In this document: piece by piece, positions 2,849-37,900 of the stretch
Layout: every line of letters starts with the position of its first letter
How positions within the stretch are numbered: the stretch's first letter is position 1
NCBI GenBank assembly: GCA_038228695.1
Contig: JBBRPA010000007.1
Coordinates: 8,263 to 72,262, forward strand
Direction: 5' to 3'
Length of the DNA: 64,000 nt
Source of the DNA: Chthoniobacterales bacterium
Lineage (GTDB): Bacteria; Verrucomicrobiota; Verrucomicrobiia; Chthoniobacterales; DASVRZ01
Notes under the pieces: model-generated
The model's database searches: none
Told to the model about the DNA's origin: nothing
What the model saw: the letters and a program-made list of their open reading frames with translations, nothing else
Position numbers and translations under genes: made by a program

Positions 2849-2862
2849 GGTGATACGAAAGG

Positions 2863-4098: not shown

Positions 4099-4754
4099 TT
4101 GGCCTCCAATTTGGCTAAGACGTCAGCAGGGACATCGGATTTGGTCGCGTTCTGAGCGCGTTGCAGGGCGCGGATGTAGGCCACGATGGCCCAACGATCT
4201 TCGCGGGTGATTTTATCGCCATAGGGATACATGGTGTTTTTCCCGTGGGTGATGGTGTTGTAAATTTCGCCGTCGGCCATGACGCGGATCCGCTCCTGAT
4301 GGTAACTGGGCACGCCAACGATGCCGTATTGGGTGGTGATGCCGTTGCCCGCGCCGGATGCGCCGTGGCAGGGAACGCAGTTGATGGCATAGCGTTGCTG
4401 ACCGCGCACGAGTAGTTTTTGATCGACCGGAAGCGGCATCCCAGTGCCCCAGCTTTCGCCCATTTTACCGGTGTCGATGTAGTCATCGCCTTGGGTGTAG
4501 CCTTTGTAAAAATGATCGGCCTGACCGTTTGCGGTGGCTTCATTGTAGCCGAACGGAATGGTGCCTGCGACGGGCGTTCGCTCGACCCGACCGTCAGCGA
4601 AAAATTCACTGGTCTTCTGCGGCTTATATTTCGCCTGACGATCCATGTCGGGGAAAATTTCCGTGGGCGGCTTGCGGGATTTCGAGCCGCGGAATCCGGC
4701 CGCGGCGAGCACGCCGACTCCCACGAGCAAACAAATGAGAAAAAAGTAACGCAT
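4095..4754 (-). CDS. actE: Alternative Complex III subunit ActE (monohaem cytochrome c)
   Basis: 219 aa with a signal/anchor peptide and a single CxxCH (CVPCH). The C-terminal class-I cytochrome c context includes DRWAIVAYIRALQ. Its position between actD and actF fits ActE. Confidence 0.8.
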   Translation of the reverse strand: MRYFFLICLLVGVGVLAAAGFRGSKSRKPPTEIFPDMDRQAKYKPQKTSEFFADGRVERTPVAGTIPFGYNEATANGQADHFYKGYTQGDDYIDTGKMGESWGTGMPLPVDQKLLVRGQQRYAINCVPCHGASGAGNGITTQYGIVGVPSYHQERIRVMADGEIYNTITHGKNTMYPYGDKITREDRWAIVAYIRALQRAQNATKSDVPADVLAKLEAK

Positions 4755-4760
4755 GATCGT

Positions 4761-5315
4761 TTATTCGTGAATCAGGGTAATGTCTTTCGCGCCCAAATCG
4801 GAGAGCAATTCGGAGGTGCCTTTTTCGGTGAATTTTGGGTCAGCCGCCTCGATGACCATGATGAAACCATCGTCGCTGAAACGCCCAAAGCCGTCCCAGT
4901 TGAAAACAGGATGATTCCAGCGCGGCATACCATTGAGGAGAAACATTCCGATCACCGTGGTGAAAGCGGAGAAAAGAATGGTTAGCTCAAACATGATCGG
5001 GAAAAACGCCGGCACAGAGAAAAGCCCGAACGGTTTGCCATGGACGATGAGTGGATACAGAAAGGTGGACGGAATGAACTCCAGACACATGGCGGTGATG
5101 AAACCGGTCACACCACCAACGAAAACGATTTTGCCGAGAATGGAATGACCGAGGCCCATGGCGGCGTCCATGCCGTGGACCGGATAGGGCGTGTGGACAT
5201 CCCAGCGGCGAAAGCCTTTGTCGCGGACTTTTTTCGCGGCCTCGTAAATCTCGGCCGCGCTCGAAAAGCGGGCGCCGAGTCCGAAAAGTTTTTTGCGTTC
5301 AGCGATGGCAGCCAT
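4761..5315 (-). CDS. actD: Alternative Complex III subunit ActD (DUF3341-type membrane protein)
   Basis: 184 aa with two central TM helices. It sits between actC and actE. The N-terminal FSSAAEIYEAAKKVRDKGF segment is typical of ActD as I remember the family. Confidence 0.7.
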   Translation of the reverse strand: MAAIAERKKLFGLGARFSSAAEIYEAAKKVRDKGFRRWDVHTPYPVHGMDAAMGLGHSILGKIVFVGGVTGFITAMCLEFIPSTFLYPLIVHGKPFGLFSVPAFFPIMFELTILFSAFTTVIGMFLLNGMPRWNHPVFNWDGFGRFSDDGFIMVIEAADPKFTEKGTSELLSDLGAKDITLIHE

Positions 5316-5317: not shown

Positions 5318-6811
5318 TTAAGCGTGCGCCTCCTCGGTGGTGGAGGTGTGAGCCCCGTGGTCGTCATGTTTCGGATGGTAATGCGGATCGGCTTCGGGCA
5401 GCACGCCTTTGACCTCGGAGATCGCAATCATCGGCAGGAAGCGGATGAAGAGGAGGAAAAGGGTCATGAACAAACCGAAGGTGCCAGCGAAGGTCCAGAT
5501 GTCCACCCACGTCGGATGGAACATGCCCCACGAGGACGGAATGAAATCGCGATGGATGGAAGTAACGATAATGACAAATCGTTCGAACCACATCCCGGCG
5601 TTGACGCACATGCAGACCGCGAAAACCACGTAGATATTGTAACGCAATTTGGGGAACCAGAAAATCTGGGGCGAGATCACGTTGAGCGACATCATTGCCC
5701 AGTAAGCCCACCAATATGGGGCAACGGGGACATTGTAGAGCTTGCTGAAAATGTATGGGTCGGCCATGCGGTTGCGCAGGAATAACCACGTCTCGTAAGG
5801 ATTGCCGGAGTAAGCCGCGGTGAAAAACTCCATGCAGTAGGCGTAGCCGACGATGGTGCCGGTGAGCAGGATGATTTTGCACATCACATCGACGTGCTTC
5901 GGAGTGATCAGATCATGCAACCCGTAAATCGCACGGGCCGGGAGCATGAGCGTCAGCACCATAGCAAAACCGCCGAAAATAGCTCCCGCGACGAAATACG
6001 GTGGGAAGATCGTGGTATGCCAGCCAGGAATGACCGAGGTGGCGAAGTCGAAGGACACGACCGAGTGAACGGAGAGCACGAGCGGGGTCGAGATGCCCGC
6101 GAGAATGAGGTAGGCAAGTTCGTAATGGCGCCATTGGCGATTGCCGCCGCGCCAGCCAAGGGCGAGGAAACCGTAGGCGAACCGGGCCACTTTACTGGTG
6201 GCGCGATCGCGTAAGGTCGCGAGATCAGGAATGAGTCCGATAAACCAGAACATGACCGAAACCGTGAAATAGGTGGAAACCGCAAAAACGTCCCAAAGGA
6301 GGGGCGAACGGAAGTTCGGCCAGATCGCGTTAGCGTTCGGAATCGGAGCAAGGAACCAGACCATCCAAATACGGCCCACGTGAATGCCGGGGAAAATACC
6401 GGCGCAAACCACCGCGAAAAGGGTCATCGCCTCAGCGGCGCGGTTGATCGAGGTGCGCCATTTCTGACGGGTCAGAAAGAGAACCGCGGAAATGAGCGTG
6501 CCGGCGTGACCGATACCGATCCAGAAGACGAAATTGGTAATGTCCCAAGCCCAGCCGACGGGGTGGTTCAAGCCCCAAGTGCCGACACCGGTGGAAATCA
6601 TATAACCGATGCAGGCGAAACAAATCAGGGCGAGCGTTCCGGAAATGGCGAGGGCGATCAGCCACCAGACGGGGGTCGGCCCCTCGACAATTCCGCAGAT
6701 GCGTTGGGTGACCCAAGACATCGAGCGGTTGTTGAGAACGAGAGGAATGCGGGGGAGCGGTTCCTCGGGTGTGGGGTTGGGCCCCATTACAAGCATATCG
6801 GATGTTGCCAT
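5318..6811 (-). CDS. actC: Alternative Complex III subunit ActC (NrfD/PsrC-like quinol-interacting membrane subunit)
   Basis: 497-aa polytopic protein with about 10 TM helices. Its start overlaps the actB stop (TAATG at 6809-6813). Its position and size match ActC. Confidence 0.8.
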
Positions 6812-9800
6812 TAGTGGTGTGCTCCTGCGGGTTCGGAAGTTTTCGCTTTTGCGTTCGGATCGCGGGCCGGACCCGTGCTTCCGGGTGCGCCTTCCCCGTG
6901 GAGCGATTCGTATTCGTCGGGATAAATGTCGGCCACTTTGTCGGCTCCGGGCATTTTCGGATTCGGGTTGCGAATGCGAGCCAGATAACTGGTGCGGGTG
7001 CGGATGTTGAGATACTCGAGCAACCGATAGCGGCGGGGATTGTCCTGCAGTTTTGCGAGAGCGCTGTCCGGGTCGTTTAAGTCGCCGAAGGTGATCGCCT
7101 CAGCCGGGCAGGCCTGTTGGCAAGCGGACTTGATCGTATCAGTCGGGATCTTGAGTTTGTCCGAACCGCCCGCTTTGACGCGTGACGTGATGCGATGCTC
7201 CTCGATGCGTTGGAGGCAATAGGTGCATTTCTCCATCACGCCGCGAATGCGGACGGTGACGTTCGGATTCTTCTGCATCTTGGTCAACTCCTCGGTGCCT
7301 TTCGGAGCGAGAGGTCCGTAATAGAGTCCGCTTGCTTCGGGCAGCGGGCCGACCTTGATTTTTTCGATTGGGCGCTCGTTGTAGTTGAAGAAATTGAAAC
7401 GGCGCACTTTGAACGGGCAATTGTTCGCGCAATAACGCGTGCCGATGCAGCGGTTGTAGGCCATCACGTTGAGGCCGTCTTCGCTGTGAACCGTGGCGTT
7501 GACTGGGCAAACCGTCTCGCAAGGGGCGTTCTCACATTGCTGACAACCCACCGGTTGCATGACCATTTCCGGTTCGGTCTCATCGTGTTCGTCGCCTGAT
7601 GTAGCGAAATAACGATCGATTCGCAGCCAGTGCATTTCGCGGGAATTGTGGACCTGCTCCTTGCCGACAATCGGAATGTTATTCTCCGCTTGGCAGGCGA
7701 TGGTGCAGGCGCTGCAACCGGTGCACGTGTTTAGGTCGATGACCATGCCCCATTGCTCGGGCATGCCGAGTTTCGGAGATTTATAGAGGGAAATATTCGG
7801 CGGAATGTGCCCGTCGATGTGCATCGTCTTGGCAAATGCGGGCTCGGCTTCGAATTTCGCCTTGGTTCCCTCGCGCACGAGGGCGCGTCCCTCCATTTGA
7901 TGATGCTCTTGGGTGAAAGCGAGAAGATGTTGACCTTGGGATTTGACGATTTTCGCGCCGTTAGCGAAACCGGAATCGGTGGAAGTGAGCAGCGCAAAGG
8001 CGTTGAAACCAACCCCAGTGCCGACTTTTCCGGCGGTGCCCGTAGCGTGACCGTAGCCTCGGGCGAGCGTGATCGAATCATCGGCGTGGCCGGGCGAAAC
8101 GAGTACGGGCACTTCGAGGGCGCGGCCTCCGATCGTTAGCTTAACGAGGTCGTTGTCGTTCAGACCGTGGGCCTTAGCGAATTTTCGGGAAATCAGCGCC
8201 GCGTTATCCCAAGTGAGCTTCGAGACCGGGTCGGGCAACTCATGGAGCCAGCCGTTGTCGATGCTGTTGCCGTCAGGGATTTTGTAGTCGGGCGGGAAAA
8301 CAACCTCGATCACTTTCGGATCGGGCAGCGAAATCGGGGCGTCAAAACGGCGGAAGGCGAGATTCGCCGCAGCGGGTTTTCCCTCGGCGTAACCGGTGCG
8401 GAGGAAGTTCGACCAGGTCGTGCCTTGGCCCTGTTTTTCGAAGGTGGCTTTAACCAGCTCCGCGCCGACAGGGACGGGTGAACCAGCAAGAAGCGTGAGC
8501 ACGTCGTTGACCGAGAGACCGCCGAAAAGCGGGAGAATCATTGGCTGGACGGGCACGTAGGTGCCATCCGGGCTGAAGGCGTCGTCCCAACTCTCAAGGA
8601 AATGGGTGCCGGGCACGTGCCATTTGGCAGCTTGGGCGGTCGCGTCGGTCCGCAATCCGACGTGAACGACATCGGGAACAGATTTGAGCAGTTCGCCGAA
8701 TTTTAAGTCTGCTGGCGCAGTGTAAACCGGGTCGGATTCAAGAATGAAAAGCGTGGAGACCAACTTATCTTGGATCGCACGGGTCAAGTCGGTGAGGGTT
8801 CCGGCCGCGGACGCCGCGGTGGCCACTCCGCGAAGGGTGGTGCCGATATTGCCGAGGGCTTGGTTAATAGCGAAACCGAGTGCCTGCACTTCGACCGGCT
8901 GGCGCGGACCGACAATGACGAGGCTGCGTCCTTGGGCAGAGAGAAGGTCGGCGGCGCATTCCGCAATCCATTTCGGATCCACCCCGGGAATCTCCGGAGC
9001 CAGCGTCATGTTCATCCCGAGTTTGGCCGCGAGGGAAACGAGGAAAGCAACAGCTTGGCTGGCCTTCAGGCGCAAGCGGTGATCCGCCATGCCGCCCGTG
9101 ATCGTGTAGCGGTTTTCGACCGCATAGAGGCGGTTCATTTTTTCTTTCGGATCGCGTCGTTTGGAAAATTGCCGAGTCGGCTCCGTCCCAACCGCGTCGA
9201 TCCCAAGGAAATCGGAATCCACCGCGACGACGACGTCTGCTTTCTCAAAATCGTAACTCAGCGCCACGCCTTCGCCGAAGCTCTTCGCCACAGCCTGATC
9301 GAGGACACTGCCGGTCGGATCGTAAACGTGGAATTTTGCGGCGGGATAAATCGCGAGGACTTCTTTCTTAAGGCGCTCCCGAGTCGGCGAATGGCTGACA
9401 TCGGAAAGAAAGGCGAGACCTTCGCCCTTTTTCTCGGCGATTTTCGGGAGGAGATCCTTCAGGTAATTCTCGAAAGAAGCGCGGTCAGATTTTTTCCCGT
9501 TGGCGATAAAAAATTTCGAGCGGTCCGGGTTGTAAAGATCGAGAATGGTAGCCTGCGCTTGAAGATCGGTCGCGCCACTGCTCGCGGGATGAAGCGGGTT
9601 GCCCTCGATCTTGGTCGGACGACCGTCGTGGGTCGTGACCATTAGGGGCATGGCACCGCCGCGGCGGGGCATCGCACTGGCATAAAAGAGAGCTTTCCCG
9701 GGAACGCTCCACTCGACGCTCTTGGAAAGCGCGGCAAATTGGATCTCCGGACGGCGGCAACCACTAAATCCGAAGCCGGCCAGGGCGAGCGACGCTCCCA

Positions 9801-9975
9801 TGATCTGCATGAAACTGCGACGGCTCAGACCATCGATTTCCATCTCCGCGGCACCTTGCGGAAATTCCCGCTCGAGCCAGCCGCGAAATTCCGGTGTGTC
9901 AGCCAGTTCCCCGACGTTCCGCCAATACTTCCGGCCGGTCACGACCTCGGGTGGATGCTGTAAAATACGTTTCAT
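6811..9975 (-). CDS. actB: Alternative Complex III subunit ActB (molybdopterin-oxidoreductase-like domain fused to a 4Fe-4S ferredoxin domain)
   Basis: 1054 aa with a Tat-type signal ([19 protein letters not shown]). Fe-S cysteine clusters lie in the C-terminal third: [36 protein letters not shown] and CTYC. The size is typical of ActB. Confidence 0.9.
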
Positions 9976-9987
9976 GGACCTAAAAAA

Positions 9988-10650
9988 TTAACGGTGACAG
10001 CCGGAGCAGTTTTGCGGCGGGCGGATGGCCCATTCCTTGACGAGTTGGGTGCCCATTTCTACTTGGGCCTTTTGCGGATCTTTGCCTTCCGGCTTCCAAT
10101 CCAGATTGAAGACCTTATCGAGCGGACGGACAAATTTTTCGGGGTTGCGATGGCACTCGAGACACCAGCCCATGCTTTGCGGTTGATCGTGGTAAACGAC
10201 CTCCATGTTATTGATATTACCGTGGCAGCTGACACAACTGACGCCACGGTTCACGTGGACCGAGTGGTTGAAGTAAGCATAGTCCGGCGCGTAGTGAATG
10301 CGCACCCAGGGGAGCGGCTGACCGGTTTCCCAAGCGGTCTTGAGCGCGGCAAACTTCGGGTTATTTTTCTGCACCTGTGAGTGGCAGTTCATGCAAGTTT
10401 GCGCGGTCGGAATGTTGGAGTGGGCCGCCACTTCGACATTCGAGTGGCAATAGCGACAATCCATCCCGAGCTGGTTGACGTGAATGTCGTGCTGAAAAGG
10501 CACTGGCTGCACCGGTTGGTAGCCGACGCGGGTGTATTTCGGAGTGAAATAATACGCCACGCCGCCGGTAATGGCCGCTCCGAGAACAGCAACACAGACG
10601 AGAACTTTAAGAGGCAGCTGATTGGTCCAGCGCGGGAAAATATTGGCCAT
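9988..10650 (-). CDS. actA: Alternative Complex III subunit ActA (pentahaem cytochrome c)
   Basis: 220 aa with an N-terminal anchor. It carries five CxxCH motifs: CRYCH, CMNCH, CVSCH, CLECH and CSGCH. It is the first gene of the operon. Confidence 0.9.
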   Translation of the reverse strand: MANIFPRWTNQLPLKVLVCVAVLGAAITGGVAYYFTPKYTRVGYQPVQPVPFQHDIHVNQLGMDCRYCHSNVEVAAHSNIPTAQTCMNCHSQVQKNNPKFAALKTAWETGQPLPWVRIHYAPDYAYFNHSVHVNRGVSCVSCHGNINNMEVVYHDQPQSMGWCLECHRNPEKFVRPLDKVFNLDWKPEGKDPQKAQVEMGTQLVKEWAIRPPQNCSGCHR

Positions 10651-16610: not shown

Positions 16611-17093
16611 TCACGCCATGAGCAGGGAAATTCCAAACACGGCCACCATCACGAGCGCGACAACCACTTTGATGATACTCCCCGCCAATCCGCCTAAAAA
16701 AGTTCCCCAAGTCGACTTACCAGCGGGGAGCAGCCCTTTGCCAGTGAGGAGTTCGCCCGCCAAAACTCCGAGCAGTGGCCCCACGATAATCCCGACCAGA
16801 CCAAAGAAGAGGCCCACGATCGCTCCCAAAATGCCGCCCAACGCACCCCATCGGGTAGCTCCGAAGTATTTCGCGCCTGCCGCGCCGCTCAGAAAATCGA
16901 CCGCCAGCCCCACTAGAACCAAAACCGCCAAAATTGCGATCACGGTCCAGCTTACCCCACGCTCGCCAAAACCCATCCGATGCACGATCGCCCCAGCCAG
17001 AATCAGGACGTGCCCCGGCACCAGAGGCAGAATGGTTCCCAACACCCCACCCAGCATGAGCAGAACAATCACGATCCAGAGAAAAACGTCCAT
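16611..17093 (-). CDS. DUF456-family membrane protein
   Basis: I chose the start at MDVFLWIVIVLL (ATG at 17093); MMNPQ at 17153 is an alternative. The Gly-rich 4-TM pattern (GTILPLVPG, GAAGAKYFGATRWGALGGILGAIVG) is typical of DUF456. The long N-terminal extension to 17420 in the ORF track overlaps the opposite-strand gene and looks spurious. Confidence 0.65.
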   Translation of the reverse strand: MDVFLWIVIVLLMLGGVLGTILPLVPGHVLILAGAIVHRMGFGERGVSWTVIAILAVLVLVGLAVDFLSGAAGAKYFGATRWGALGGILGAIVGLFFGLVGIIVGPLLGVLAGELLTGKGLLPAGKSTWGTFLGGLAGSIIKVVVALVMVAVFGISLLMA

Positions 17094-17171
17094 CGCCCAA
17101 AACGGTCGCCACGATTCCCTCTCCTTGCAACGGGACGTTTGCGGATTCATCATACCCAGGGATCCCCTAAA

Positions 17172-18005
17172 ATGAACGACTCCACGCAGGAAATCTGGGC
17201 CGAAGGCCTGCGCATCGCGACCCGCCTCGGCTCGCGCATCCGACTTTCCCTGATCCGGCGCCAACTCGTAAAAGCGGAGCGCCGGCTCGGCGAACTGGGC
17301 TGGCAACAGGCGCACTACGACCCGCGCGATACCCAATTCATCGCCCTCCAATCCGTCGAGCAGGAACAGGCCCACCTCCATTTCGAGGTCGCCGAATTTC
17401 GCGAAAAAATCACCCTCCAAAAAACCGTCGCCGCCGAAAAATTCGCGGCCCTCACCACCGGCCTAGTTACCGCCGAAAATGAGGCCACCGAAGCGGAGAC
17501 GTCCGCTCAGCGCGACCTCGCCTGCCTCGACGCCGAACGCCGTCGCGAGGGTCCCGCCTACCTCATCGAAAGCCTCGAGCGCGCCCTTGCCGCCAGCGAA
17601 ACCCAGCTCCGCGCCGCCCGGAGCGAAGCCCATCGCCATCAGGAAATTCTCGCTCTGCACGAAGTCGATTCTGGCCAGAAACTGGCTGCGCTGGAGAAAT
17701 CGATCGCGGTTCTCGAAGCGCAACTGGCCGGACTCGAACCGCGCAAATCCGATCATTTCGCCCGCATCGGCCACAATCTCGCCGACGTCGGCATCGCCCC
17801 GATGAACCAACCCGGCGTCCTCACCCGCGTGCTCGACCTGCGCCAGCGCGCCGAGTCGAACGCAACCGCGCTCGCCGAGTCGCTCAACACTTCCCGCGCC
17901 CTGCCCCGAGCGATTCGCCTTGGCGCGTTCGCACTTGACCTCACGATCCTTCTCTCCGGCGTTGGCTTTCTCTATCTCCTCGCCAGCGCCATTGCCCAAG
18001 CCTGA
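17172..18005 (+). CDS. hypothetical coiled-coil protein with C-terminal transmembrane anchor
   Basis: I chose the ATG at 17172 (MNDSTQEIWAEG...). The sequence is a long Ala/Glu/Leu/Arg-rich helix. The C-terminal TM helix is LGAFALDLTILLSGVGFLYLLASAI. No motif was recognised. Confidence 0.5.
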   Translation: MNDSTQEIWAEGLRIATRLGSRIRLSLIRRQLVKAERRLGELGWQQAHYDPRDTQFIALQSVEQEQAHLHFEVAEFREKITLQKTVAAEKFAALTTGLVTAENEATEAETSAQRDLACLDAERRREGPAYLIESLERALAASETQLRAARSEAHRHQEILALHEVDSGQKLAALEKSIAVLEAQLAGLEPRKSDHFARIGHNLADVGIAPMNQPGVLTRVLDLRQRAESNATALAESLNTSRALPRAIRLGAFALDLTILLSGVGFLYLLASAIAQA

Positions 18006-19069: not shown

Positions 19070-19762
19070 TTACTCGACGCGAAACGCGAGCAGAATGTCG
19101 TGGGCAGCGTCCGATCGTTGCAGCGAAATCGCCGCGCCGAGCAGCCGAATCAATTCGAGCGCGATTGCGAAATCTCGCGTTTCCACCACCTCGACCTCTG
19201 CACCCGGCGCACCCTGGAAGTGGACCATCAACGCCCGCGTTGCCGTTCCTCCGAAATGACCCCGCAGCGTGTGGAGATACTGCCGCGGCGGGAGGGAACC
19301 GAGCCGGATATGCACCTCACCGGTAGCTGGAAGCCGGGTCAAAATCTGGTCGAGCATAAACGGCAACCAACGCGGGTTGATGAGCGCGTCGCCGCCCTCG
19401 ACGGGATCGGCCACAACCGTCCAACCGGAGTGATTTTCGATCTCGTCCGCCATGGTTTGAATGGAGGAGGCGAGTCCGCATATCTCGGGCTCAACCGGCA
19501 TGGTCTTGCGAACATCGTTCAGCTCGCAGCACGTGTCGGAAACGCGGCGCACGGCCCGGAAAAGATCAGCCAAAAATCCACTCAACTGAGGCGTCAACTC
19601 CGACTCCGTGGGGATGAGCAATTCGGAATTCGCGAGGACGGAAACTTGGTTGTTGAGGTCGTGTAATTGGCTGGTGAAATACGCTCCGAGCAGCTCCAAC
19701 GCAGTCAGCCCGGGACGGTCGGATTCGGTCAATTCGACAAAGTTGGAGAGTGAGGTAGCCAT
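19070..19762 (-). CDS. histidine-kinase-like protein with H-box but no recognisable ATP-binding N/G boxes (pseudo-kinase or phosphotransfer protein)
   Basis: 230 aa. SQLHDLNNQVSVL resembles the HisKA H-box (HDLNN.L). The C-terminal half has no DxGxG or GxGxGL motifs and no N-box Asn. It is the last gene of a three-gene operon. Confidence 0.45.
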   Translation of the reverse strand: MATSLSNFVELTESDRPGLTALELLGAYFTSQLHDLNNQVSVLANSELLIPTESELTPQLSGFLADLFRAVRRVSDTCCELNDVRKTMPVEPEICGLASSIQTMADEIENHSGWTVVADPVEGGDALINPRWLPFMLDQILTRLPATGEVHIRLGSLPPRQYLHTLRGHFGGTATRALMVHFQGAPGAEVEVVETRDFAIALELIRLLGAAISLQRSDAAHDILLAFRVE

Positions 19763-19766
19763 GATT

Positions 19767-20120
19767 TTAAAATGCCGTGCGGGCGAGGCTGGTGCGGAAA
19801 ATTTTCTCGATCCGATCGCCGAGCAGATCGTTGCTGTTTTTGTCGGTGATGACCCCCAGCGTGGTGCCCTTGTCGCTGATCATGCAGAGGATTTTCACCT
19901 GCTCGAAATTCCAGACCATGCGGGGCGACCCGAGTTTATGGAGATGAGCGACTTGGATCGTGTCGGCGAGAGCGCGCCAAATGGTTTCGTCGATCGACTG
20001 GTCGTGCGGGCTCTTGGAATCGGCGAATATGACCATCCGATTATGCAGGCAAATACCGGCCCGGAGCACGCCGGGGAGCATCTCAATCCTGCGCTGGAGT
20101 TGGACGAAAAGGTCGTTCAT
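19767..20120 (-). CDS. Roadblock/LC7 (MglB-like) domain protein (tentative)
   Basis: 117 aa. The LPGVLRAGICLHNRMVIFA ... TTLGVITDKNSN pattern and the size fit the Roadblock/LC7 fold. Its start overlaps the upstream response-regulator stop as ATGA. Confidence 0.45.
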   Translation of the reverse strand: MNDLFVQLQRRIEMLPGVLRAGICLHNRMVIFADSKSPHDQSIDETIWRALADTIQVAHLHKLGSPRMVWNFEQVKILCMISDKGTTLGVITDKNSNDLLGDRIEKIFRTSLARTAF

Positions 20121-21394
20121 ATGAGTGCGCCGTTTCGTTTCGGGACGGTGTCAACAACGGTAGCGACGGCCTCCCGGATTCGGCTGACCGGGATGTGACG
20201 ACGACGAACAAGGCCGAAGGTGCCGATGCCATTGGGAAATTCTACCACCGCTGAATAATCTGTGCCGTGGACGGAAAGAAACTCGATCGCCCCCCACTCC
20301 GGACGTCCGCAAATCTGGCGCATCTTAATACTGAACAATTCCAGTAAATCGATGCGGCGCGAGGGATTTTCCGATCCTTCCTGCTTGATCAGGCCGCCTT
20401 GGGGCGAGCAAATCACGAGCTCGTCGAGGCGAATTTTGGGTGATTCGATCGGCCGAGCTTGGGGGGTGGATCGGACCATCGGAACATCCAACGCGATTCC
20501 CTGGGAGCGGCGCACGGCAGGCAGAACAGCGACCGACACGGCCGCGGGAAGGGAAACAGGGCGATCAATGAGCTCGGGTTCGCGCGGGGGAAAAGCATAG
20601 CTTGGGACCACGGGCAGACTGCCAATATCGATGCGCGGGGTTTTCGGAATAGGAATAGACGAGACATCCGCGGGCAGCAGTTCCTCTTCGTCAAGAACGC
20701 CGCTCTCGTCGAGCAACCGGGCGGATTCCATCAGAAGGAACTCCCACGAGTTGGTAATGGTGCATTTCGGCGGCTCCGAGAAGGGTCGGGTCTGAAACTC
20801 ACCGCCCCGGAGGGTCATGACTTGGTAAAACGCATCGTAACCCTCGGCATTGCCGATGGTGGCGTGGATGACCGAGCCCTCGCGAATGAAAATATCGGCA
20901 AAGCCTTCCCGCGATTTCACCTGCAAAACGAGCGAATTGCCCCCCGTACAGAGCATTTGGAGCATGTCGGCGAGGCTGGCCTGCTGGATGATGCCGCTGA
21001 ATCCTCGGGTTTGTGGGAACTCCAAAAGTTGCACCAAGGCCGCGTAAACGCTCCGCATTTCCTCCGAATTGCGCGGTTTTTCGAGAAACAAGGCCGCCCC
21101 GTGCGCGAGGCAGGCTGTCCGGTAATCCTCCTCGGCATACCCGGTGAGGATGGCTTTTTGCACGTTGGGATGCTTTCGGTTCAACAGGCGGAGGAACTGC
21201 AAGCCGTCCACCACGGGCATACGGATATCGATCACGACCACCGTTACCGGCGTTTCTTGGAGAATCATGATCGCGTCGCCCACACTATGAGCCGTCTCGA
21301 TCTTCAACGGCGTCCCGGCACTCCACGACTTGAAGACGCGCTGGATCGACTCGAGAAAGGCGAGGTCATCATCGACGAAAAGTAGGGTGCTCAT
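20117..21394 (-). CDS. response regulator: REC domain + DUF4388 domain + Pro-rich linker + uncharacterised C-terminal domain
   Basis: 425 aa. The REC signature residues are intact (FVDDD, VVVIDIRMP, ILTGY, FLEKP). The segment FSGIIQQASLADMLQMLCTGGNSLVLQV...GSVIHATIGNAEGYDAFYQVMTLRGGEF matches DUF4388 as I know it. Confidence 0.75.
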   Translation of the reverse strand: MSTLLFVDDDLAFLESIQRVFKSWSAGTPLKIETAHSVGDAIMILQETPVTVVVIDIRMPVVDGLQFLRLLNRKHPNVQKAILTGYAEEDYRTACLAHGAALFLEKPRNSEEMRSVYAALVQLLEFPQTRGFSGIIQQASLADMLQMLCTGGNSLVLQVKSREGFADIFIREGSVIHATIGNAEGYDAFYQVMTLRGGEFQTRPFSEPPKCTITNSWEFLLMESARLLDESGVLDEEELLPADVSSIPIPKTPRIDIGSLPVVPSYAFPPREPELIDRPVSLPAAVSVAVLPAVRRSQGIALDVPMVRSTPQARPIESPKIRLDELVICSPQGGLIKQEGSENPSRRIDLLELFSIKMRQICGRPEWGAIEFLSVHGTDYSAVVEFPNGIGTFGLVRRRHIPVSRIREAVATVVDTVPKRNGALI

Positions 21395-21602
21395 TGGGGC
21401 CGGAATAGGCTTCGCCGCCCCGGCTGCCCTTCCATTTGCGGGAAAGACAACCGTTGCAGCACCTCTCTAAGAGCAACTCGCAAGCCAGCCGAAGCAATCG
21501 AGCGCTTTTTTCCTCTGAAATCGGGGCGCTTTTTGGAAGAATTCAGCGCGGTGTTTAGCGGGGAGCTTGGCTTTTTTGTCCATTCAGCCCATAAGTAACC
21601 CT

Positions 21603-21953
21603 ATGGGACATTGGCTGAACTCGCTTAAGGATACCGCCCTCGCAGCCGGCGTTCGGAAATTTCTGGGCAGCCGGTTGGAGGGTTACGGGCGCATCACGCA
21701 ACTCAAAATTGATACTCAAATTCGCCAAATTGAGCTCGGATTGCTTCTCGAAGGCGAGTCCGCGCCAGTCGAAGTCGTGCTCCGCAACTACGCGATCGCC
21801 GACCAAGCGGGCGTGGTTTCCATTTCCGCACCAACGGGGGCTTTTACCACCTCGCGCGCCTGGCTGACCACTCTACTCAACGCGCAAGTCGCGGGGCGGC
21901 AGTTTGTTATTCCCGAGCCTTACGCGAAATACGCCTGGAGCCTCGTCGGGTAG
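21603..21953 (+). CDS. hypothetical protein
   Basis: I chose the ATG at 21603 (MGHWLNSLKD); the ORF track starts at a TTG at 21567. No motifs were recognised. It is divergent from the response-regulator operon. Confidence 0.4.
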   Translation: MGHWLNSLKDTALAAGVRKFLGSRLEGYGRITQLKIDTQIRQIELGLLLEGESAPVEVVLRNYAIADQAGVVSISAPTGAFTTSRAWLTTLLNAQVAGRQFVIPEPYAKYAWSLVG

Positions 21954-21977: not shown

Positions 21978-22469
21978 ATGGACGAAATTATAACGGGTCT
22001 GCAGCAGGCCGAGTATGTGCATGTCATTTTGAACCACCTGCCGATCATCGGGTTGATGACGGGGTTACTGGTGTTGGTCGTGGCGTTTTTCCAAAAAAGT
22101 CAGGCGACAAGATTTGCAGGTTACATCGTGGTGCTGCTCATGGCTCTGAGCATTATTCCGGTGATCGAATACGGCGAAAAAGCGGAAGACCAAGTCGAGA
22201 GCCTGATGGACGATGCGGGCCGCCATTGGCTGCATGAACACGGCTCGCGGGCCGATCGGGTCGAGTGGCTCTATTGGGTCACCGCCGGGGCGGCTGCCGG
22301 AGGATTATTCGTGCCGCGGCGTTGGCCAAAAACCGCCCCGCTCTGGCTGGTCGGGACGTTTCTGGCCGGGAGTCTTGCCTTGGCCGGAGGGGTCTGGACC
22401 GCGTCGGCCGGGGGAAAAATCATGCACCATGAATTTCGTTACGCCGCCCCCGAGAAGTCATCGGATTAG
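21978..22469 (+). CDS. hypothetical membrane protein (about 4 TM)
   Basis: 163 aa with hydrophobic helices separated by a charged loop (EYGEKAEDQVESLMDDAGRHWLHEHGSRADR). No family was assigned. Confidence 0.5.
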   Translation: MDEIITGLQQAEYVHVILNHLPIIGLMTGLLVLVVAFFQKSQATRFAGYIVVLLMALSIIPVIEYGEKAEDQVESLMDDAGRHWLHEHGSRADRVEWLYWVTAGAAAGGLFVPRRWPKTAPLWLVGTFLAGSLALAGGVWTASAGGKIMHHEFRYAAPEKSSD

Positions 22470-22573: not shown

Positions 22574-25500
22574 ATGCAAGTAATCGTTGCGGGAATGCAC
22601 CGTTCTGGGACCTCGATGGTCGCCCGGTTGCTGAATCTGATGGGTCTCTATTTCGGCACCGAGGACTCCGGTCCTTTGCCTGAAAGCGATCTTCCCAAGG
22701 GCTCCTGGGAACGGAATGACGTCGTAAAGGTCAACGACCTCCTCCTCGCCACTCAAGGGGCTACATGGCGGAACGTCGTCTCCTTCCAACCCCGTCATAT
22801 TCCAGAGGCGCTCCAACGCGATTTTCAGCGTCGGATCTCGGAGATTGTCCTGCGCATGGAGACGCAGCGTCCTTGGTTCATCAAGGATCCCCGGCTTTCG
22901 CTCACGCTCCCACTCTGGCAGCCCGTTTTGGAGATGCCGGTTTATGTCATTCCCTGTCGCGACCCGCTGGAAATCGCCCTGTCTCTCGAGCGCCGGGACC
23001 GGATTCCGCTCGCTGCCGGGCTGGCTCTCTGGCATCGCTACTCCGCTGATTTGCTGAACGCCACCCGTGGGGGCAAACGGATTTTCGTCAGTCACGCCAA
23101 ACTCATTTCCGACCCGGTCGCAGCGACGGCACAATTGGCCGACGACCTCGAAAAATACGGTGTCCATCTGCCCCGTCGTCCGCTCGATCAGGAGATCGTT
23201 TCCTTCATCGATCCCAAGCTCTATCGGGCCAAGCAATCCAGTAACGGAATGGAGTCGCCGACGCGTCTGTCCCCAGCGCAACAGGCCGTCTGGGAAATGC
23301 TTCAACCCGATTTCGCGGGCGATCGCGATGTAGTAATCGACCCGGAGGAAATAAACCAGACGCTCCGTGAATTCCTTCCTTTCGAACTCGCCCACAGCCA
23401 GATCGAGAAGCTGCAAACTCTGGAATCGGAGAATCAACATCTGCAAAATGCGCTCCTCGCCGAGCAAGAGAAAACTTCTCAGATTCTCGCTGCGCTCCAT
23501 CGCAACGGTGACGTCAAGGCTTCCACTGCCGGGGTGGAAAACGGCAGCGGCAAAACTGCGGCGATGGACGATCCCAACAAAGACGTCATCGACTCAGCGG
23601 ACAGTCGGCTTTTACTCCTCGCCACCATGGTTCGGCGACTTGAGAACGACCTCACTGAGCGGTTCAACAAGATCCAAGTCCGCGCCGCCGAAGCCAGTGA
23701 CACGTTGAACATGCTCGCTCCAATTTTGCGCCCAACCTCCCGCAAAAAAACTGAAAAATACGACGAGATATTTCAGATCCAGCAAATGAAGGATCGGTTG
23801 ATTAAAAAAGAAAAGACCATCATCCGCTTGATGGACTGGCTCGACGCGATGCTCGGCACGATTCCGCTGAGTTCTTCCGCGCGGAAGGCCCGGCGCTATT
23901 ACAAACACTGGCGAAGCCGTTACGAGACGAGCACGCTCAAGCCGCTTCCCGTTTCGCTCTCGCGCCTGAAAGACGACGCGGAAATTCGTGTTCGCAAAGC
24001 CGGCGAAAATCGCACCAGCGCGATCGAGGCCGAAAACACGCTCCGGAAGCTGCTTATCGAGATCGAGCACGACGAGTTTTTTCAAAGCGGAGAATTTTCC
24101 AGAATCTACGGCGTGGCTGGCTTCGATCCCTCCGTCTTGGGCAAACAAGACGATGAGCAAAAAATTGGCCTACGCGATTTCAGCCGCGGCGTCGATCCCG
24201 TCGTTAGCGTCATCATTCCCGTTCACAACCAGATCGCCTACACCTCCAGTTGCCTCCGCTCGCTCTCGGTCGTGAAGGAAAAAACGCCTTTCGAAGTCAT
24301 TGTCGTGGACGATGCCTCCAACGACACCAACTACCAACGACTCGCCGCCATTGAGGGCATTCAAATCATCCGCAACGAGAAAAACCTCGGCTTTCTCGAA
24401 AGTTGCAACAAAGGCGCTCGGGCCGCCCGCGGCCGCTACACGCTGTTTCTAAACAACGACGTGAAGGTTCTGCCGGGCTGGCTGGATTCCCTCGTTCAGA
24501 CGTTCCAGACCCACCCCGATGCCGGACTCGTTGGCTCCAAATTGCTCTATCCCGATGGCAGCTTGCAGGAGGCCGGAGGGATTGTCTGGCGCGACGGCTC
24601 GGGCAGGAATTACGGGCGAAACGACGATCCCGCAAAACCCGAGTATCGGTTTCTCCGCGAGACCGATTACTGTTCCGGCGCGTGCATTATTTTGCCCACC
24701 GAACTTCTGCGCGAAGTGGATTATTTCGACACCCGATTCGTCCCGGCTTATTACGAGGACACCGACCTCGCCTTCAAAGTTCGCGCTGCCGGCAAAAAAA
24801 TTTACTACCAGCCCGCCTCCGAGATTATCCATTTCGAGGGCAAATCCAATGGCACGGACGAATCCTCGGGCGTCAAGCAATTCCAAGTCGTTAACGCGGC
24901 GAAATTCGCTGAAAAATGGAAGGACGTTCTGGATCGAGACCACTTCGATCCCGGCACCAACCCGTTCACCGCGCCGGATCGCGGACGAGGTCCGATCATA
25001 CTCGTGCTGGATCATTATGTGCCCACGCCGGATCACGATGCGGGCTCCCGCAGCACATCTCATTACATTAGGATGTTTCAGGAAATGGGCTTCCGGGTGA
25101 AGTTCATTCCGGCTGATTTTCAGGCACCAGAACCGCACACTAGCCGTCTCGAGCGCTCGGGCGTCGAGGTTCTCCGAGGCAGTTGGTACGAAGAGCATCT
25201 CCGCTCTTGGCTAGTCGAACATCAGGAACATTTCCCATTCATTTTTTCCAATCGCAGCCATATCACCGGGCGCTATCTCGACACCTTCCGGCAGATGCCG
25301 AACACAAAAATCCTCTACTACGGACACGACCTCGGCTCTGTCCGCAACCAGCGGCGTTTTGAACTTAGCCATGACCCGGCGCACCGCGAGAAAGCGGAGA
25401 CCGAAACCCAACTAGAGACGGCTATCTGGGCCCAGGCACACGCCATCTACTACCCGTCGGATACGGAGACCGCGCACGTCCGCACCCGGTTTCCTCAAGC

Positions 25501-26107
25501 CAACGCCCGCACTCTGCCCCTCTATATTCTTGAGCCAAACACTTGGAACTACGCGGATAACCTCGCTTACCGACGCGACCTCATTTTCGTTGGTGGCTTC
25601 GCGCATCCGCCCAATGAAGACGCCGTCCTCTGGTTTCTCGATCATTGCTGGCCAAAGATCGCCAAGACCGTGCCCGCTGCTCGCTTTGTCATCGTCGGGA
25701 GCTTTCCCACCGAGCAAATCCAAGATCGCGCCTCCGAACGGGTGATCGTCACCGGCTGGATTAGCGACGAAAAACTCGCCACCCGCTACCGCGAGTCCCG
25801 GCTCGCCGTCATTCCTCTGCGCTACGGCGCTGGCGTCAAGGGCAAGGTCATCGAGGCTTTGCATCACCATGTGCCTATCGTCATGACGAGCATCGCTGCC
25901 GAGGGACTGCCGGGAGTCGAACAAATCTCCCTCGTGCGCGATGATCCGGAGGCTTTCGCTCAAGGTATCATTGACCTCTATAATAACCCAGCGCTCCTAT
26001 CCAAAATGGGCAATGCCGGCGGCCAATACGTCGCAAAGCATTTTTCAAAAGAGGCGGCAATGAAAGTTCTCCAAGCTGATCTCTCCCAGCACCCAGCAGT
26101 TTCCTAG
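22574..26107 (+). CDS. multidomain glycan-assembly protein: N-terminal sulfotransferase, coiled-coil-rich linker, GT2 glycosyltransferase, GT1/GT4-type glycosyltransferase
   Basis: 1177 aa. Sulfotransferase PAPS motifs: GMHRSGTSMV (5'-PSB) and CRDPLEIALS (3'-PB). Heptad-like stretches span about aa 255-520 (QIEKLQTLESENQHLQNALLAEQEK; VRRLENDLTERFNKIQV; QQMKDRLIKKEKTIIRLMDWL). The GT2 signature is VSVIIPVHNQ...VIVVDDASND...LNNDV. The C-terminal GT1-like segment is GWISDEKLATRYRESRLAVIPLRYGAGVKGKVIEALHHHVPIVMT. Confidence 0.8.
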   Translation: MQVIVAGMHRSGTSMVARLLNLMGLYFGTEDSGPLPESDLPKGSWERNDVVKVNDLLLATQGATWRNVVSFQPRHIPEALQRDFQRRISEIVLRMETQRPWFIKDPRLSLTLPLWQPVLEMPVYVIPCRDPLEIALSLERRDRIPLAAGLALWHRYSADLLNATRGGKRIFVSHAKLISDPVAATAQLADDLEKYGVHLPRRPLDQEIVSFIDPKLYRAKQSSNGMESPTRLSPAQQAVWEMLQPDFAGDRDVVIDPEEINQTLREFLPFELAHSQIEKLQTLESENQHLQNALLAEQEKTSQILAALHRNGDVKASTAGVENGSGKTAAMDDPNKDVIDSADSRLLLLATMVRRLENDLTERFNKIQVRAAEASDTLNMLAPILRPTSRKKTEKYDEIFQIQQMKDRLIKKEKTIIRLMDWLDAMLGTIPLSSSARKARRYYKHWRSRYETSTLKPLPVSLSRLKDDAEIRVRKAGENRTSAIEAENTLRKLLIEIEHDEFFQSGEFSRIYGVAGFDPSVLGKQDDEQKIGLRDFSRGVDPVVSVIIPVHNQIAYTSSCLRSLSVVKEKTPFEVIVVDDASNDTNYQRLAAIEGIQIIRNEKNLGFLESCNKGARAARGRYTLFLNNDVKVLPGWLDSLVQTFQTHPDAGLVGSKLLYPDGSLQEAGGIVWRDGSGRNYGRNDDPAKPEYRFLRETDYCSGACIILPTELLREVDYFDTRFVPAYYEDTDLAFKVRAAGKKIYYQPASEIIHFEGKSNGTDESSGVKQFQVVNAAKFAEKWKDVLDRDHFDPGTNPFTAPDRGRGPIILVLDHYVPTPDHDAGSRSTSHYIRMFQEMGFRVKFIPADFQAPEPHTSRLERSGVEVLRGSWYEEHLRSWLVEHQEHFPFIFSNRSHITGRYLDTFRQMPNTKILYYGHDLGSVRNQRRFELSHDPAHREKAETETQLETAIWAQAHAIYYPSDTETAHVRTRFPQANARTLPLYILEPNTWNYADNLAYRRDLIFVGGFAHPPNEDAVLWFLDHCWPKIAKTVPAARFVIVGSFPTEQIQDRASERVIVTGWISDEKLATRYRESRLAVIPLRYGAGVKGKVIEALHHHVPIVMTSIAAEGLPGVEQISLVRDDPEAFAQGIIDLYNNPALLSKMGNAGGQYVAKHFSKEAAMKVLQADLSQHPAVS

Positions 26108-34965: not shown

Positions 34966-37900
34966 TCAAGCGAGCGTCTTCCGCAAATACGGAGCGATGC
35001 GGCTAGTCTTGTGACGGGCAATCTCCTCGGGCGTGCCGGTGGCAACGACTTCACCGCCCGCCGCGCCGGCTTCCGGGCCGATATCAACGACATAATCCGC
35101 CTCGGCGATGACATTCAAATTGTGTTCAATGACAATGACCGTGTGACCAACATCGACGAGGCGTTGAATGACTCCGAGCAACATTTCGACGTCGGCCATG
35201 TGAAGGCCAATCGTTGGTTCCTCAAGCAAATACAACGTGCTTTTCGCAACCCGCATTTTGCGAATCTTGTTGGTGTGATCGCGCGCTGCACCGAGGCGAA
35301 GTTCGGAAACGAGCTTGAGCCGCTGGGCCTCGCCACCGCTCAGAGTCGGACTGGGCTGCCCGAGTTTCAAATAGCCCAACCCGGTATCGACTAACAATTG
35401 TAGCGTTCGATGGATTTTCTGACTAGTCGAGAAGAATTCAGCCGCTTCCGCGATGGTCATGTTCATGACGTCGCCAATGTTTTTCCCGTTATATTCGACC
35501 TCGCGGGTTTGCGCGTTGTAACGGGTGCCGCCGCAATCCTCACACGGCACGTAGCTCGCGGGGAGGAAGTTCATTTCCATCTTGATCACTCCCTGGCCGG
35601 CACAGGCTTCGCAACGTCCACCCTCGGTGTTGAAAGAGAAACGGGTGTTGGTGTAACCGCGCATCCGCGACATCGGAAGCGATGCAAAAAGCAGGCGTAT
35701 CTCGTCGAAAACTTTAATGTAGGTCGCGGGAATCGAACGGGAAGTTTTACCAATGGGAGACTGATCCACCTCGTAAACCGCCTCGAGATGCTCCGCGCCT
35801 TTGAGCAAGGGATGATCCCCGTTTTTTCGGCGTTTCTTGCTCAGGGCGGCCTCCACCGCGGGTTTCAGCGCGGAGCGCATCAGGGTGCTCTTGCCCGATC
35901 CGGAAATCCCCGTAATTGCGGTCAGGCGTCCGATCGGAAAGCGGACGGTGATGTCCTTCAGATTGTTAACATCGGCCTCAATGAGCTGAAGCCACTGGAG
36001 TTTTTCCATCGGGCGCCGCGCACCCCGCAGGGGATGGCGCATGGGGTGTTTGAGATAGTGGCCGGTCCGAGAATTTTTGCAGGTCTTGATCTGGGCGAGA
36101 GTTCCCTGCGCGACAACCTCGCCGCCGTTCATCCCGGCCCCAGGACCAAGATCGACGATAACATCGGACCGTCGCATCGTTTCCTCGTCGTGCTCGACGA
36201 TGACGAGTGTGTTTCCCTTTGCCCGGAGGGCTTGGAGGGTGTCGAGCAAGGCGTCATTGTCGCGCGGGTGGAGTCCGATGGTGGGCTCATCGAGGACGTA
36301 AAGGACGCCGCGCAGATTGGAGCCAAGTTGGGCGGCCAATCGGATGCGTTGGCTTTCCCCGCCGCTGAGAGTTTTTGCGGAGCGATCCAGTGCTAGATAG
36401 CTGAGGCCAACATTTTGCATGAAACGCAACCGTTGCGTGATCTCGGGCAAAATATCGTCGGAAATAACGCGCTGATCTTTGGCAAAGCGCAATTCCCCAA
36501 TGGTTAGCAGGGAATCGCGCACGCTACCGTGGGCCAATCGGTCGATGGTTAGATCATTGACCCGAACGTGACGAGCGACCTCATTGAGTCGAGCTCCATG
36601 GCAAGCCGTGCACGGCTTGGCTTCCCCGGCCTCGATCCATTCGTGAGCGCGCTCCTCGGCCAGTTCCCGCTCGAGGACCGAGGCATTGTCATCGACCTTA
36701 ACTGAGGCGTGAAATATTTCACCAAACCCGTTGCAGGTCGCACACCAGCCGTGCGGAGAATTAAAGGAGAATAAACGCGGATCTAGTTCCTCAAACGCCC
36801 GCGCACATTTCGGGCAGGTCATCTCGGTGCTCAAAATGGTTTCGGTCCCATCGTGCAAAATTTTGGCGGTGCGTTTACCAACTTTCAGCGCACGCTCGAC
36901 CAGTGGGCGAATTTCGCTTTTTGCAACTTTGGCGAGATCCGCCACGACGACATCGATGGTGTGTTCCTTGAAGCGTTCGAGTTTTTGGAAGTTAGCCGAG
37001 GAGAGGAACTTTCCATCGACGAGCAGCATTTCAAATCCGTCCTTCGCAGCGGCGGCGGCAACGTCGGTGTGGAAACCTTTGCGCGCCTTGACCACCGTGG
37101 CGAGAAGCCAGGTCCTCTTTTTTCCCGCGAGTTTTTCCACCTGAGCGACGATTTTCTGGACGGTCTGACCCTCGACTGGAATGTCGCATTTTGGACAGTA
37201 TTGCGTCCCGAGTTTCGCAAAGAGCAGCCGAAGGAAATGATAGACCTCGGTCACGGTGGCCACGGTGGATTTCCCGCCACCCCGGGTGATCCGCTGCTCG
37301 ATCGCGACGCTGGGGGGCAACCCCTCGATGTGGTCCACGTCGGGTTTTTCCATCTGCCCGACAAACTGCCGTGCGTAGGGCGACATGCTATCGAGAAAAC
37401 GGCGCTGGCCCTCCGCGAAAAGGAGGTCAAAGGCGAGGGTAGATTTTCCGGAGCCGCTTAGTCCGGTGATCGTGATCATCTTTTCCCGAGGGAGCGTGAG
37501 GGTGAAATTTTTTAGGTTGTGCTCCCGAGCTCCATGGATGGTGATGCCGTTGGATTGGGGATTTTTGACTTTTGATTTCCGAATGGGATCCTCGGCGAGT
37601 CGGGTGCCGCCAAGCATCGCGGCGAGGTGACGACCCGTGTGCGATGCGGGGTTTTTCGCGACCTCCTCCGGCGTGCCCTCCGCAACCACCAGACCGCCCT
37701 CCGCGCCCGCCTCGGGGCCGAGATCGATGACGTGGTCGGCAGATTTGATCACCTCCAGATTATGCTCAATAACAATAAGGGTATTTCCTGAGTCCACCAG
37801 TTTTTGAAAGACAGCTAAGAGCAGTGAAACATCGTCGAAGTGCAGGCCGGTGGTTGGTTCGTCAAAGATCAGAAGGGCATTTTGATTGTGCCCAGATTTT

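Follow-up and report, generated by a model that had tools for sequence, protein, structure and literature searches.

A conserved gene triad in Chthoniobacterales encoding a REC-PATAN response regulator, a Roadblock-fold protein and a putative lid-less histidine kinase relic

This report concerns three adjacent genes, g1, g2 and g3, in a stretch of contig JBBRPA010000007.1 from a Chthoniobacterales bacterium (assembly GCA_038228695.1; the whole 64-kb stretch that was analysed is called the window). In the list of open reading frames (ORFs) they lie head to tail on the minus strand (Table 1) and encode a response regulator, a small protein with a predicted Roadblock fold and a protein that appears to derive from a histidine kinase. 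The g1 stop codon overlaps the g2 start codon in an ATGA at 20117-20120, and 4 nt (aatc) separate the TAA of g2 from the ATG of g3. A previous annotation made from the letters of the DNA and its ORFs, here the sequence-only reading, had given the same genes, overlap and gap, and the ORF list and sequence agree with it exactly. A consensus scan of the coding strand between the genes gave no promoter-like and no convincing terminator-like sites, with counts no higher than in shuffled sequence. The simplest reading is that g1-g2-g3 form one transcription unit with translational coupling. Upstream, a sigma-70 consensus scan of the interval between g1 and the divergent gene u1 found nothing above chance. 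The three are real genes and not chance ORFs: homologues of each were found, and at least eight other distinct loci have them in the same order.

Table 1. Coordinates of the g1-g2-g3 triad, its encoded domains and the adjoining genes (positions are those of the window)
Feature	Position	Strand	Description or basis
g1	20117..21394	-	425-aa response regulator: REC, PATAN (DUF4388/PatA_N), Pro-rich linker and conserved C-terminal domain
g1 receiver (REC), aa 5-115	21050..21382	-	Pfam Response_reg and residue positions
g1 PATAN / DUF4388, aa 134-230	20705..20995	-	Pfam PF14332
g1 variable Pro-rich linker, aa 231-320	20435..20704	-	16 Pro in 90 residues (manual count)
g1 C-terminal domain, about 105 aa	20120..20434	-	Invariant core E-V-CS-G...R..LE...K.RQ
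g2	19767..20120	-	117-aa protein, predicted Roadblock/LC7 fold
g3	19070..19762	-	230-aa putative kinase-derived protein, HisKA-type DHp and degenerate lid-less CA fold
g3 DHp helical hairpin, aa 21-87	19502..19702	-	AlphaFold helices 21-49 and 58-87
g3 degenerate CA-like alpha/beta domain, aa 91-230	19073..19492	-	Alignment to P0038 kinase core
Intergenic region g1/u1, divergent	21395..21602	.	Presumed operon promoter region, from position only
u1	21603..21953	+	About 116-aa soluble protein, no Pfam match, divergent from operon
u2	21978..22469	+	163-aa membrane protein, at least 2-3 hydrophobic segments (hydropathy); only a sub-threshold DUF599 match

The receiver of g1 matches Pfam Response_reg (PF00072; E 1.9e-19, 70.3 bits against a cutoff of 30.2) and has the full catalytic set, comprising the acidic pocket D8/D9/D10, the phospho-acceptor D56 (codon 21227-21229), T84 and K106. 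NCBIfam matches of g1 were restricted to this domain. It is followed by a match to PF14332 (DUF4388, now PatA_N or PATAN; E 2.1e-17, 63.7 bits against a cutoff of 25). The sequence-only reading had described an intact receiver fused to DUF4388, followed by a Pro-rich linker and an unassigned C-terminal domain, and this description is borne out in full. The order of the parts is REC, PATAN, linker and extra domain, and not the PatA-type order in which PATAN is N-terminal and REC C-terminal. This architecture was found in the homologues of related loci L001-L012, L015, L016, L018 and L019 (20 related loci, designated by L numbers, were compared with the window). REC and PATAN are 86-93% identical among close loci and 47% identical to L018; the linker is only 33-45% identical among close loci, and in L018 and L019 it is shorter and acidic or poly-Pro. 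The C-terminal domain is 57-64% identical in close loci and 27% identical to L018. We regard it as a real domain because it is still recognisable in the deeply divergent L018 and L019. The last large homologue search with it returned five fragments without domain annotation. Against PDB sequences its profile gave only insignificant matches to Rpt6. Neither BLASTP nor hhalign found significant similarity between this domain and g2; the best hhalign alignment to the g2 family was non-significant (E 0.04) and in register over beta3-alpha3 of g2. By eye, the hydrophobic pattern of the domain would fit an order beta-beta-alpha-beta-beta-beta-alpha.

The second protein, g2, matched nothing in Pfam or NCBIfam, including Robl_LC7 (PF03259), even at E <= 10; neither the single sequence nor the family profile retrieved a meaningful match among PDB sequences, where the profile found no Roadblock chain, and there was no similarity to MglB profiles. 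CFA/I fimbrial repeats, which appeared among the PDB sequence matches (phmmer/hmmsearch), were dismissed as chance. An AlphaFold model built on the family alignment (pLDDT 76, pTM 0.72) has the secondary-structure order alpha-beta-beta-alpha-beta-beta-beta-alpha, and when it was compared with the PDB by Foldseek the Roadblock/LC7 superfamily accounted for 50/50 of the matches listed (E from 1.6e-4, TM-scores 0.42-0.67). These include Asgard and Streptomyces Roadblock/LC7 proteins, MglB of Myxococcus and Thermus, MglC, dynein LC7, and the LAMTOR and Gtr C-terminal domains; among the matches listed, an Asgard Roadblock protein ranked first and MglC shared the top TM-score of 0.67, ahead of MglB. 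The model supports g2 as Roadblock-like by fold, and not by sequence family, so that the Roadblock/LC7-like pattern reported by the sequence-only reading for a protein of about 117 aa stands at the level of fold but has no counterpart in sequence profiles. After the REC-PATAN part of g1, g2 is the most conserved part of the operon (71-84% identity across close loci; 30% against L018), and its family comprises 13 clusters in 5.8 billion sequences.

The third protein, g3, carries the H-box S-Q-L-H34-D-L-N-N38-Q (QLHDLNNQV is aa 32-40; codons of His34 at 19661-19663 and of Asn38 at 19649-19651). Its family is rare: a word-indexed search returned three clusters, 31 proteins reached E <= 1e-3 when 1.84 billion representatives were searched exhaustively with a profile, and with a close alignment as query the family was present in only two species-representative genomes, both metagenome-assembled genomes of Chthoniobacterales/Spartobacteria. 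The relatives are mostly stand-alone and about 230 aa long; the sole long match is a genuine MASE1-PAS hybrid kinase, aligned over its HisKA region and the start of HATPase_c. In a divergent alignment of 29 members, G26, H34, N38 and W114 are invariant; two of them, H34 and N38, are the first and last residues of the H-D-x-x-N motif in the H-box. When the members were scanned individually, HisKA was matched in 11/29 (best E 2e-5; not in the g3 of the window itself), the Spo0B-type helical domain SPOB_a weakly in 11/29, and HATPase_c in none. PDE4D and Alba, which emerged from Pfam, NCBIfam and PDB sequence searches with the close family, were dismissed as chance matches.

Structure and profile comparisons point to a kinase ancestry for the whole of g3. 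Its AlphaFold model (pLDDT 84, pTM 0.78) consists of a helical hairpin (21-49/58-87) and an alpha/beta domain (94-229), and Foldseek returned 132 PDB matches at E <= 1e-3, the top ones spanning the whole dimerisation/phosphotransfer (DHp) and catalytic (CA) unit of class I histidine kinases: HK853, WalK/YycG, ZraS, EnvZ chimeras and the pseudo-kinases RetS and DivL. Among PDB sequences, the family profile matched the Leptospira kinase LvrB (E 8.7e-8) and, end to end, a DHp-CA fragment of Caulobacter CckA (5idj; E 3.3e-6). An hhalign comparison with the canonical core of a hybrid kinase, P0038, covered 208 columns (98.6%, E 1.3e-15). In this alignment the N-box asparagines stand opposite D-Q-I-L-T-R-L and a gap, the G1 motif D-D-G-C-G stands opposite F-Q-G-A-P-G with the G1 Asp replaced, and about 15 residues with the F box and the G2 glycines, that is the lid, are deleted. 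Measured against a class I histidine kinase, g3 has the H-box DHp hairpin but not a CA domain with N, G1, F and G2 boxes and lid. By alignment and model, g3 retains a predicted kinase catalytic-domain fold, degenerate and lid-less, that is homologous to canonical cores from end to end. The sequence-only reading had seen an H-box without N, G1 or G2 boxes; it was right about the missing boxes, about the histidine, which is invariant, and about the lack of a normal HATPase_c domain, but a degenerate form of the kinase catalytic fold is still present by hhalign and Foldseek. We regard g3 as a candidate histidine phosphotransferase and/or phosphatase. In the columns of aa 206-211, Lys518 of CckA corresponds to an Arg that is invariant in the close family, and several distant members have a G-W aligned with the D-G-W of CckA, whose Trp523 contacts cyclic di-GMP; a remnant of cyclic di-GMP binding in the g3 family is conceivable from this alignment.

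The synteny on which the sequence-only reading had staked its proposal is strongly conserved. When a triad is taken to mean g2, g3 and a g1 that has REC, PATAN and the C-terminal domain described above, complete sets were found in at least eight other distinct loci (L001/L002, L003, L004-6/L015, L007-9, L010-12, L016, L018 and L019). Two of these, L018 and L019, are deeply divergent, with g3 about 17-26% identical (26% for L018). Gene order and tight spacing are kept in most related loci, the g2-g3 gap of L018 being 64 nt, and the outer neighbours vary by locus and include transaldolase, sigma-70, aldo-keto reductase, rhodanese and tRNA synthetase genes. The triad is conserved in Chthoniobacterales (Verrucomicrobiota) and related uncultured bacteria. 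Beyond the close loci, genes of the g3 family follow a REC-PATAN gene in L018 and L019, and a g2-like fragment lies 4 nt upstream of a distant g3 relative in L014. Such recurrent adjacency of g3-family and receiver genes is as expected of a protein with a receiver substrate. In L019 (3845-6465) the triad is preceded by genes for a REC-HDOD-HD protein and a 476-aa repeat protein that looks HEAT-like by eye but has no recorded Pfam match, and in L017 (2-322) the sequence immediately before a g3 relative encodes the C-terminal end of an HDOD protein, a homologue of the L019 REC-HDOD gene product; this suggests that receiver proteins of more than one kind may be served by the g3 family. In L013 (7027-8004) the kinase-relic family has other partners: translational coupling links the distant relative P0020 to a 325-aa protein that has no annotation and no similarity to g1 or g2, and the pair adjoins genes for a DUF6932 protein and a ParA-like ATPase.

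A search for a GTPase or a further kinase or receiver was made among 465 window ORFs of at least 70 aa with phmmer, using as queries MglA (an unvalidated sequence), a canonical kinase core and the g1 receiver, and it returned nothing beyond the operon itself. The same scan gave no MglA-like ORF in the window or in the 20 related loci, whose flanks extend about 10 kb, and found a single, non-conserved canonical kinase in L001. By Pfam, the approximately 40 annotated window proteins include housekeeping, polysaccharide and respiratory-complex-type proteins, a UvrA-like giant, the leucyl-tRNA synthetase LeuRS and others; Walker A motifs occur there only in the ABC proteins and the UvrA-like protein, and genes for pili or a chemotaxis-like system are absent. 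The MglA-family GTPase that is coupled within a few genes to an MglB-type GTPase-activating protein (GAP) is therefore missing around g2, in agreement with the sequence-only reading, which had found no GTPase nearby. Its implication that a Roadblock protein without one is unusual does not hold: 328 of 749 MglB homologues are orphans, none of them characterised as of 2014 (PMC4316618), and MglC, a Roadblock paralogue, binds MglB and the C-terminal region of RomR, not MglA (PMC4719450). The absence of a GTPase is less remarkable because orphan Roadblock proteins are common and because MglC acts without contacting MglA. MglA and MglB homologues have also been reported near PATAN genes, so that a PATAN-Roadblock neighbourhood is in itself known (PMC4316618; 10.1101/2021.06.11.447907).

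A close architectural parallel to g3 is ChpT, the Caulobacter histidine phosphotransferase, which has a phospho-His hairpin and a Bergerat-fold domain without a working ATP lid, cannot autophosphorylate and binds neither ATP nor ADP (PMC3433190). Both are stand-alone proteins of about 225-230 aa with a hairpin, a lid-defective Bergerat domain and an H-D motif (ChpT: PDB 4fmt/4fpp). They differ at the +4 residue, an invariant Asn in g3 and Ser in ChpT, and in setting, since the operon partners of g3 are a PATAN regulator and a Roadblock protein whereas ChpT belongs to a CtrA-type cell-cycle pathway. The nearest solved sequence relatives of g3 are LvrB and CckA, the latter being ChpT's own partner, and ChpT itself is not among the PDB sequence matches of the g3 family. 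Because g3 is far closer to canonical kinase cores than to ChpT, it appears to be an independent degeneration from a CckA-type kinase and not a member of the ChpT family. ChpT, Spo0B and PhyT have been grouped as degenerated kinases with a role as dimeric phosphotransferases (PMC5898713), and g3 has the two features by which this class is defined (PMC3433190, PMC5898713), namely a phosphorylatable His and a degenerate CA-like domain predicted not to bind ATP. Spo0B and PhyT share kinase descent with g3 and have lost ATPase function to become dimeric His phosphotransferases between receivers (PMC5898713). PhyT, however, has a DHp of the HRxxN type and is membrane-anchored, whereas g3 is of the HisKA (HDxxN) type and soluble; Spo0B, like ChpT, is absent from the PDB sequence matches of the family. 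A lid-less kinase relic of this kind is not unprecedented, the ChpT/Spo0B/PhyT type being already known.

For the other two proteins the parallels lie elsewhere. The combination of REC, Pro-rich linker and C-terminal region in g1 recalls RomR, in which PATAN is absent, and g2 shares its predicted fold with MglB and MglC of the Myxococcus MglA-MglB-RomR module, for which no kinase-derived partner has been described. PATAN acts as a protein-interaction output domain and in Synechocystis binds PilB1 and PilC of the pilus motor, and for the PatA-type regulators PixG, PixE, LsiR and PatA, which like g1 combine REC and PATAN, links to cell polarity and to the motor of type IV pili have been described (10.1101/2021.06.11.447907); the host lineage of g1 is non-cyanobacterial. 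The only described operon type that pairs histidine-kinase-family and Roadblock proteins is the Streptomyces conservon (PMC4316618), which consists of a membrane-bound CvnA with ATPase domain, the Roadblock protein CvnB and the obligatory CvnC and GTPase CvnD, with no response regulator. The triad has instead a lid-less kinase-like protein and a response regulator, and neither a GTPase nor an identifiable CvnC-like gene was found in the window or the 20 related loci.

We propose, with slightly better than even confidence and by analogy with these systems, that the triad is a phosphorelay end-module in which g3 would shuttle phosphoryl groups to g1 and/or remove them, with PATAN, the C-terminal domain and the Roadblock protein as output. 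In this model g3 would descend from a CckA-type histidine kinase, having kept the dimerisation/phosphotransfer hairpin, His34 and the H-D-x-x-N motif, and with its ATP-binding residues and lid lost it would be unable to charge itself from ATP. It would dimerise through the hairpin. Its phosphoryl group would come from an unlinked hybrid kinase or a different receiver and would pass to Asp56 of g1; in addition or instead, g3 would strip Asp56 of the group through Asn38. Phosphorylation of the receiver would then alter binding by PATAN and the C-terminal domain, and g2, its stoichiometry fixed through translational coupling, may serve as an adaptor or partner of the g1 output by analogy with MglC and RomR. 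A function as a polarity or switch module, as the sequence-only reading had suggested, would be reasonable in view of what is known of PATAN and Roadblock biology. We infer the phosphotransfer between g3 and g1, the interaction of g2 with g1 and any output at the cell envelope, in pili or in polarity.

Several observations weigh against this proposal. No phosphodonor, whether hybrid kinase or second receiver, is present in the window or conserved in the flanks, and the distant g3 relatives P0020 and P0021 do not lie beside any receiver gene. The ChpT family (HPTransfase, PF10090) was matched by none of the 29 g3-family members at E <= 1, and an hhalign comparison of g3 with ChpT, using a ChpT sequence validated against PDB 4fmt, aligned only the hairpin and the first CA element (6.4%, E 0.006). 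With g3 not detectably a member of the ChpT family, its proposed function depends on architectural analogy. On the output side, the C-terminal domain of g1 has no Pfam match in a permissive scan and no PDB sequence match, so that it carries no fold assignment, and the g2 model is of only moderate confidence (pLDDT 76), and any contact of g2 with g1 or g3 is hypothetical. The conserved Asn38, finally, would fit a pure phosphatase equally well.

One explanation of this last kind is that g3 is a dedicated phosphatase or phosphate sink for phosphorylated g1, which would be charged by an unlinked kinase or by acetyl phosphate and reset through the H-D-x-x-N motif. The +4 position of the H-box, occupied by Asn38, is reportedly important for phosphatase activity in HisKA proteins, and it is invariant in 29/29 members; the lack of a co-encoded phosphodonor also agrees with this explanation, as does the fact that PhyT was first interpreted as a phosphatase (PMC5898713). 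His34, however, is just as invariant as Asn38, which is expected if phospho-His chemistry is used, and ChpT, Spo0B and PhyT all proved to transfer phosphoryl groups (PMC3433190, PMC5898713). We consider a dedicated phosphatase rather unlikely, although the two activities are not mutually exclusive. The loss of the ATP-binding motifs, and structural matches to the kinase regions of RetS and DivL that are among the best, would also agree with a non-catalytic pseudo-kinase that either forms a RetS-like heterodimer to control a true kinase or acts as a DivL-like scaffold reading the state of the receiver. RetS and DivL have a kinase fold but signal by means other than ATP-driven autophosphorylation; both are large and multi-domain, and in DivL the phospho-acceptor His is replaced by Tyr. 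By contrast, g3 is a minimal DHp-CA protein with a deleted lid and a His that, like its Asn, is invariant across deep divergence. No partner kinase is conserved nearby and the tight translational coupling with a receiver protein points to g1 as the partner, and we judge a purely non-catalytic role to be decidedly improbable. That g3 is nonetheless a functional histidine kinase with an unconventional nucleotide pocket would accord with its overall DHp-CA fold and intact H-D-x-x-N motif, but with the N-box Asn and G1 Asp replaced, the F/G2 lid deleted and HATPase_c matched by 0/29 members, and with a similar lesion leaving ChpT unable to bind ATP or ADP (PMC3433190), we give this hardly any credence.

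A further possibility concerns g2, which could act as GAP on a Ras-like GTPase whose gene lies at another place in the genome. The operon would then supply only a portion of an ordinary polarity switch of the MglA/MglB type, an arrangement that could coexist with the phosphorelay model. The g2 model does match MglB structures, MglA/MglB homologues occur near PATAN genes (PMC4316618; 10.1101/2021.06.11.447907), and the DNA inspected amounts to 64 kb of one genome and flanks of about 10 kb in its relatives. Against it stand the lack of an MglA-like ORF in any of this DNA, the lack of sequence similarity of g2 to Robl_LC7 or MglB profiles, and the rank of the Asgard Roadblock protein and MglC (TM 0.67) ahead of MglB among the structural matches listed; orphan Roadblock proteins are moreover common and MglC does not act on MglA (PMC4316618, PMC4719450). 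An MglB-type role for g2 therefore seems to us fairly unlikely. More speculatively, the triad could be a GTPase-free Roadblock switch, in which phosphorylation of the receiver via the lid-less relic would replace MglA-type GTP loading and be read by a Roadblock/PATAN complex, the C-terminal domain of g1 and g2 perhaps forming a Roadblock-type heterodimer that depends on phosphorylation of Asp56; we regard this as an unlikely extension.

Upstream of the triad, u1 adjoins it in L001, L003, L004, L008 and L010 (38-66% identity), and u2 is kept with u1 beside the triad in Chthoniobacterales loci (47-66% identity). The pair is found in every Chthoniobacterales locus with a readable upstream flank, despite differing outer neighbours, and neither gene lies beside the triad in the distant L018 and L019. 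We therefore treat u1 and u2 as lineage-specific neighbours outside the deep core. The idea that they hide Roadblock or related domains was rejected when all-against-all hhalign comparisons were negative. A large glycosyltransferase often accompanies the triad and u1/u2 in Chthoniobacterales loci. In the window the corresponding gene (22574-26107, plus strand) encodes a 1177-aa fusion of an N-terminal sulfotransferase-like domain with GT2 and GT1/GT4 domains; this fusion or a similar large glycosyltransferase stands beside u1/u2 in L001, L004 and L010. It is followed by acyltransferase and methyltransferase genes, and the G+C content at 26-28 kb is 0.485 against about 0.57 elsewhere.

Three other features of the window deserve mention. 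A 1845-aa ORF at 34966-40503 (minus strand) carries four Walker A motifs, and its UvrA interaction, ABC_tran and UvrA DNA-binding signatures occur in duplicate; at about twice the length of a normal UvrA, it looks like a tandem UvrA-UvrA fusion. A cluster at 5318-10650 (minus strand), with more ORFs at 292-5315 on the same strand, encodes a multihaem cytochrome c7-like protein, a 1054-aa iron-sulphur protein and an NrfD-like membrane subunit, which suggests a respiratory module of the alternative-complex-III type; the same cluster also occurs near the triad in L010 and L011. Finally, a 341-aa ORF at 16980-18005 (plus strand) without Pfam match is rich in Ala, Glu, Leu and Gln, a composition that suggests a coiled coil, and ends in a hydrophobic C-terminal tail. 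It shares about 440 bp with a DUF456 gene that runs in the opposite direction, and its true start is therefore probably further downstream.

Every type of part in the triad is known, as is the association of PATAN with Roadblock proteins. We found no literature description of the three parts as a fixed set that includes a lid-less kinase relic and no GTPase, of the REC-PATAN-linker-extra-domain architecture of g1, or of the uncatalogued g2 and g3 families, which leave two of the three proteins without a Pfam or NCBIfam match. With known parts and an inferred function, the finding is useful rather than startling. The g3 family appears to be a further, independently derived case of the degeneration of a kinase into a phosphotransferase-like protein, of which few (Spo0B, ChpT and PhyT) have been characterised. 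Annotation is gained for genes now listed as hypothetical in Chthoniobacterales and in related metagenome bins of the PVC group (Planctomycetes, Verrucomicrobia and Chlamydiae). The triad also offers a simple three-protein system in which to ask what orphan Roadblock proteins do, and it could show how PATAN output is controlled outside the cyanobacteria. If the GTPase-free switch were true, it would provide a phosphorylation-driven alternative for spatial or polarity control in PVC-group bacteria.

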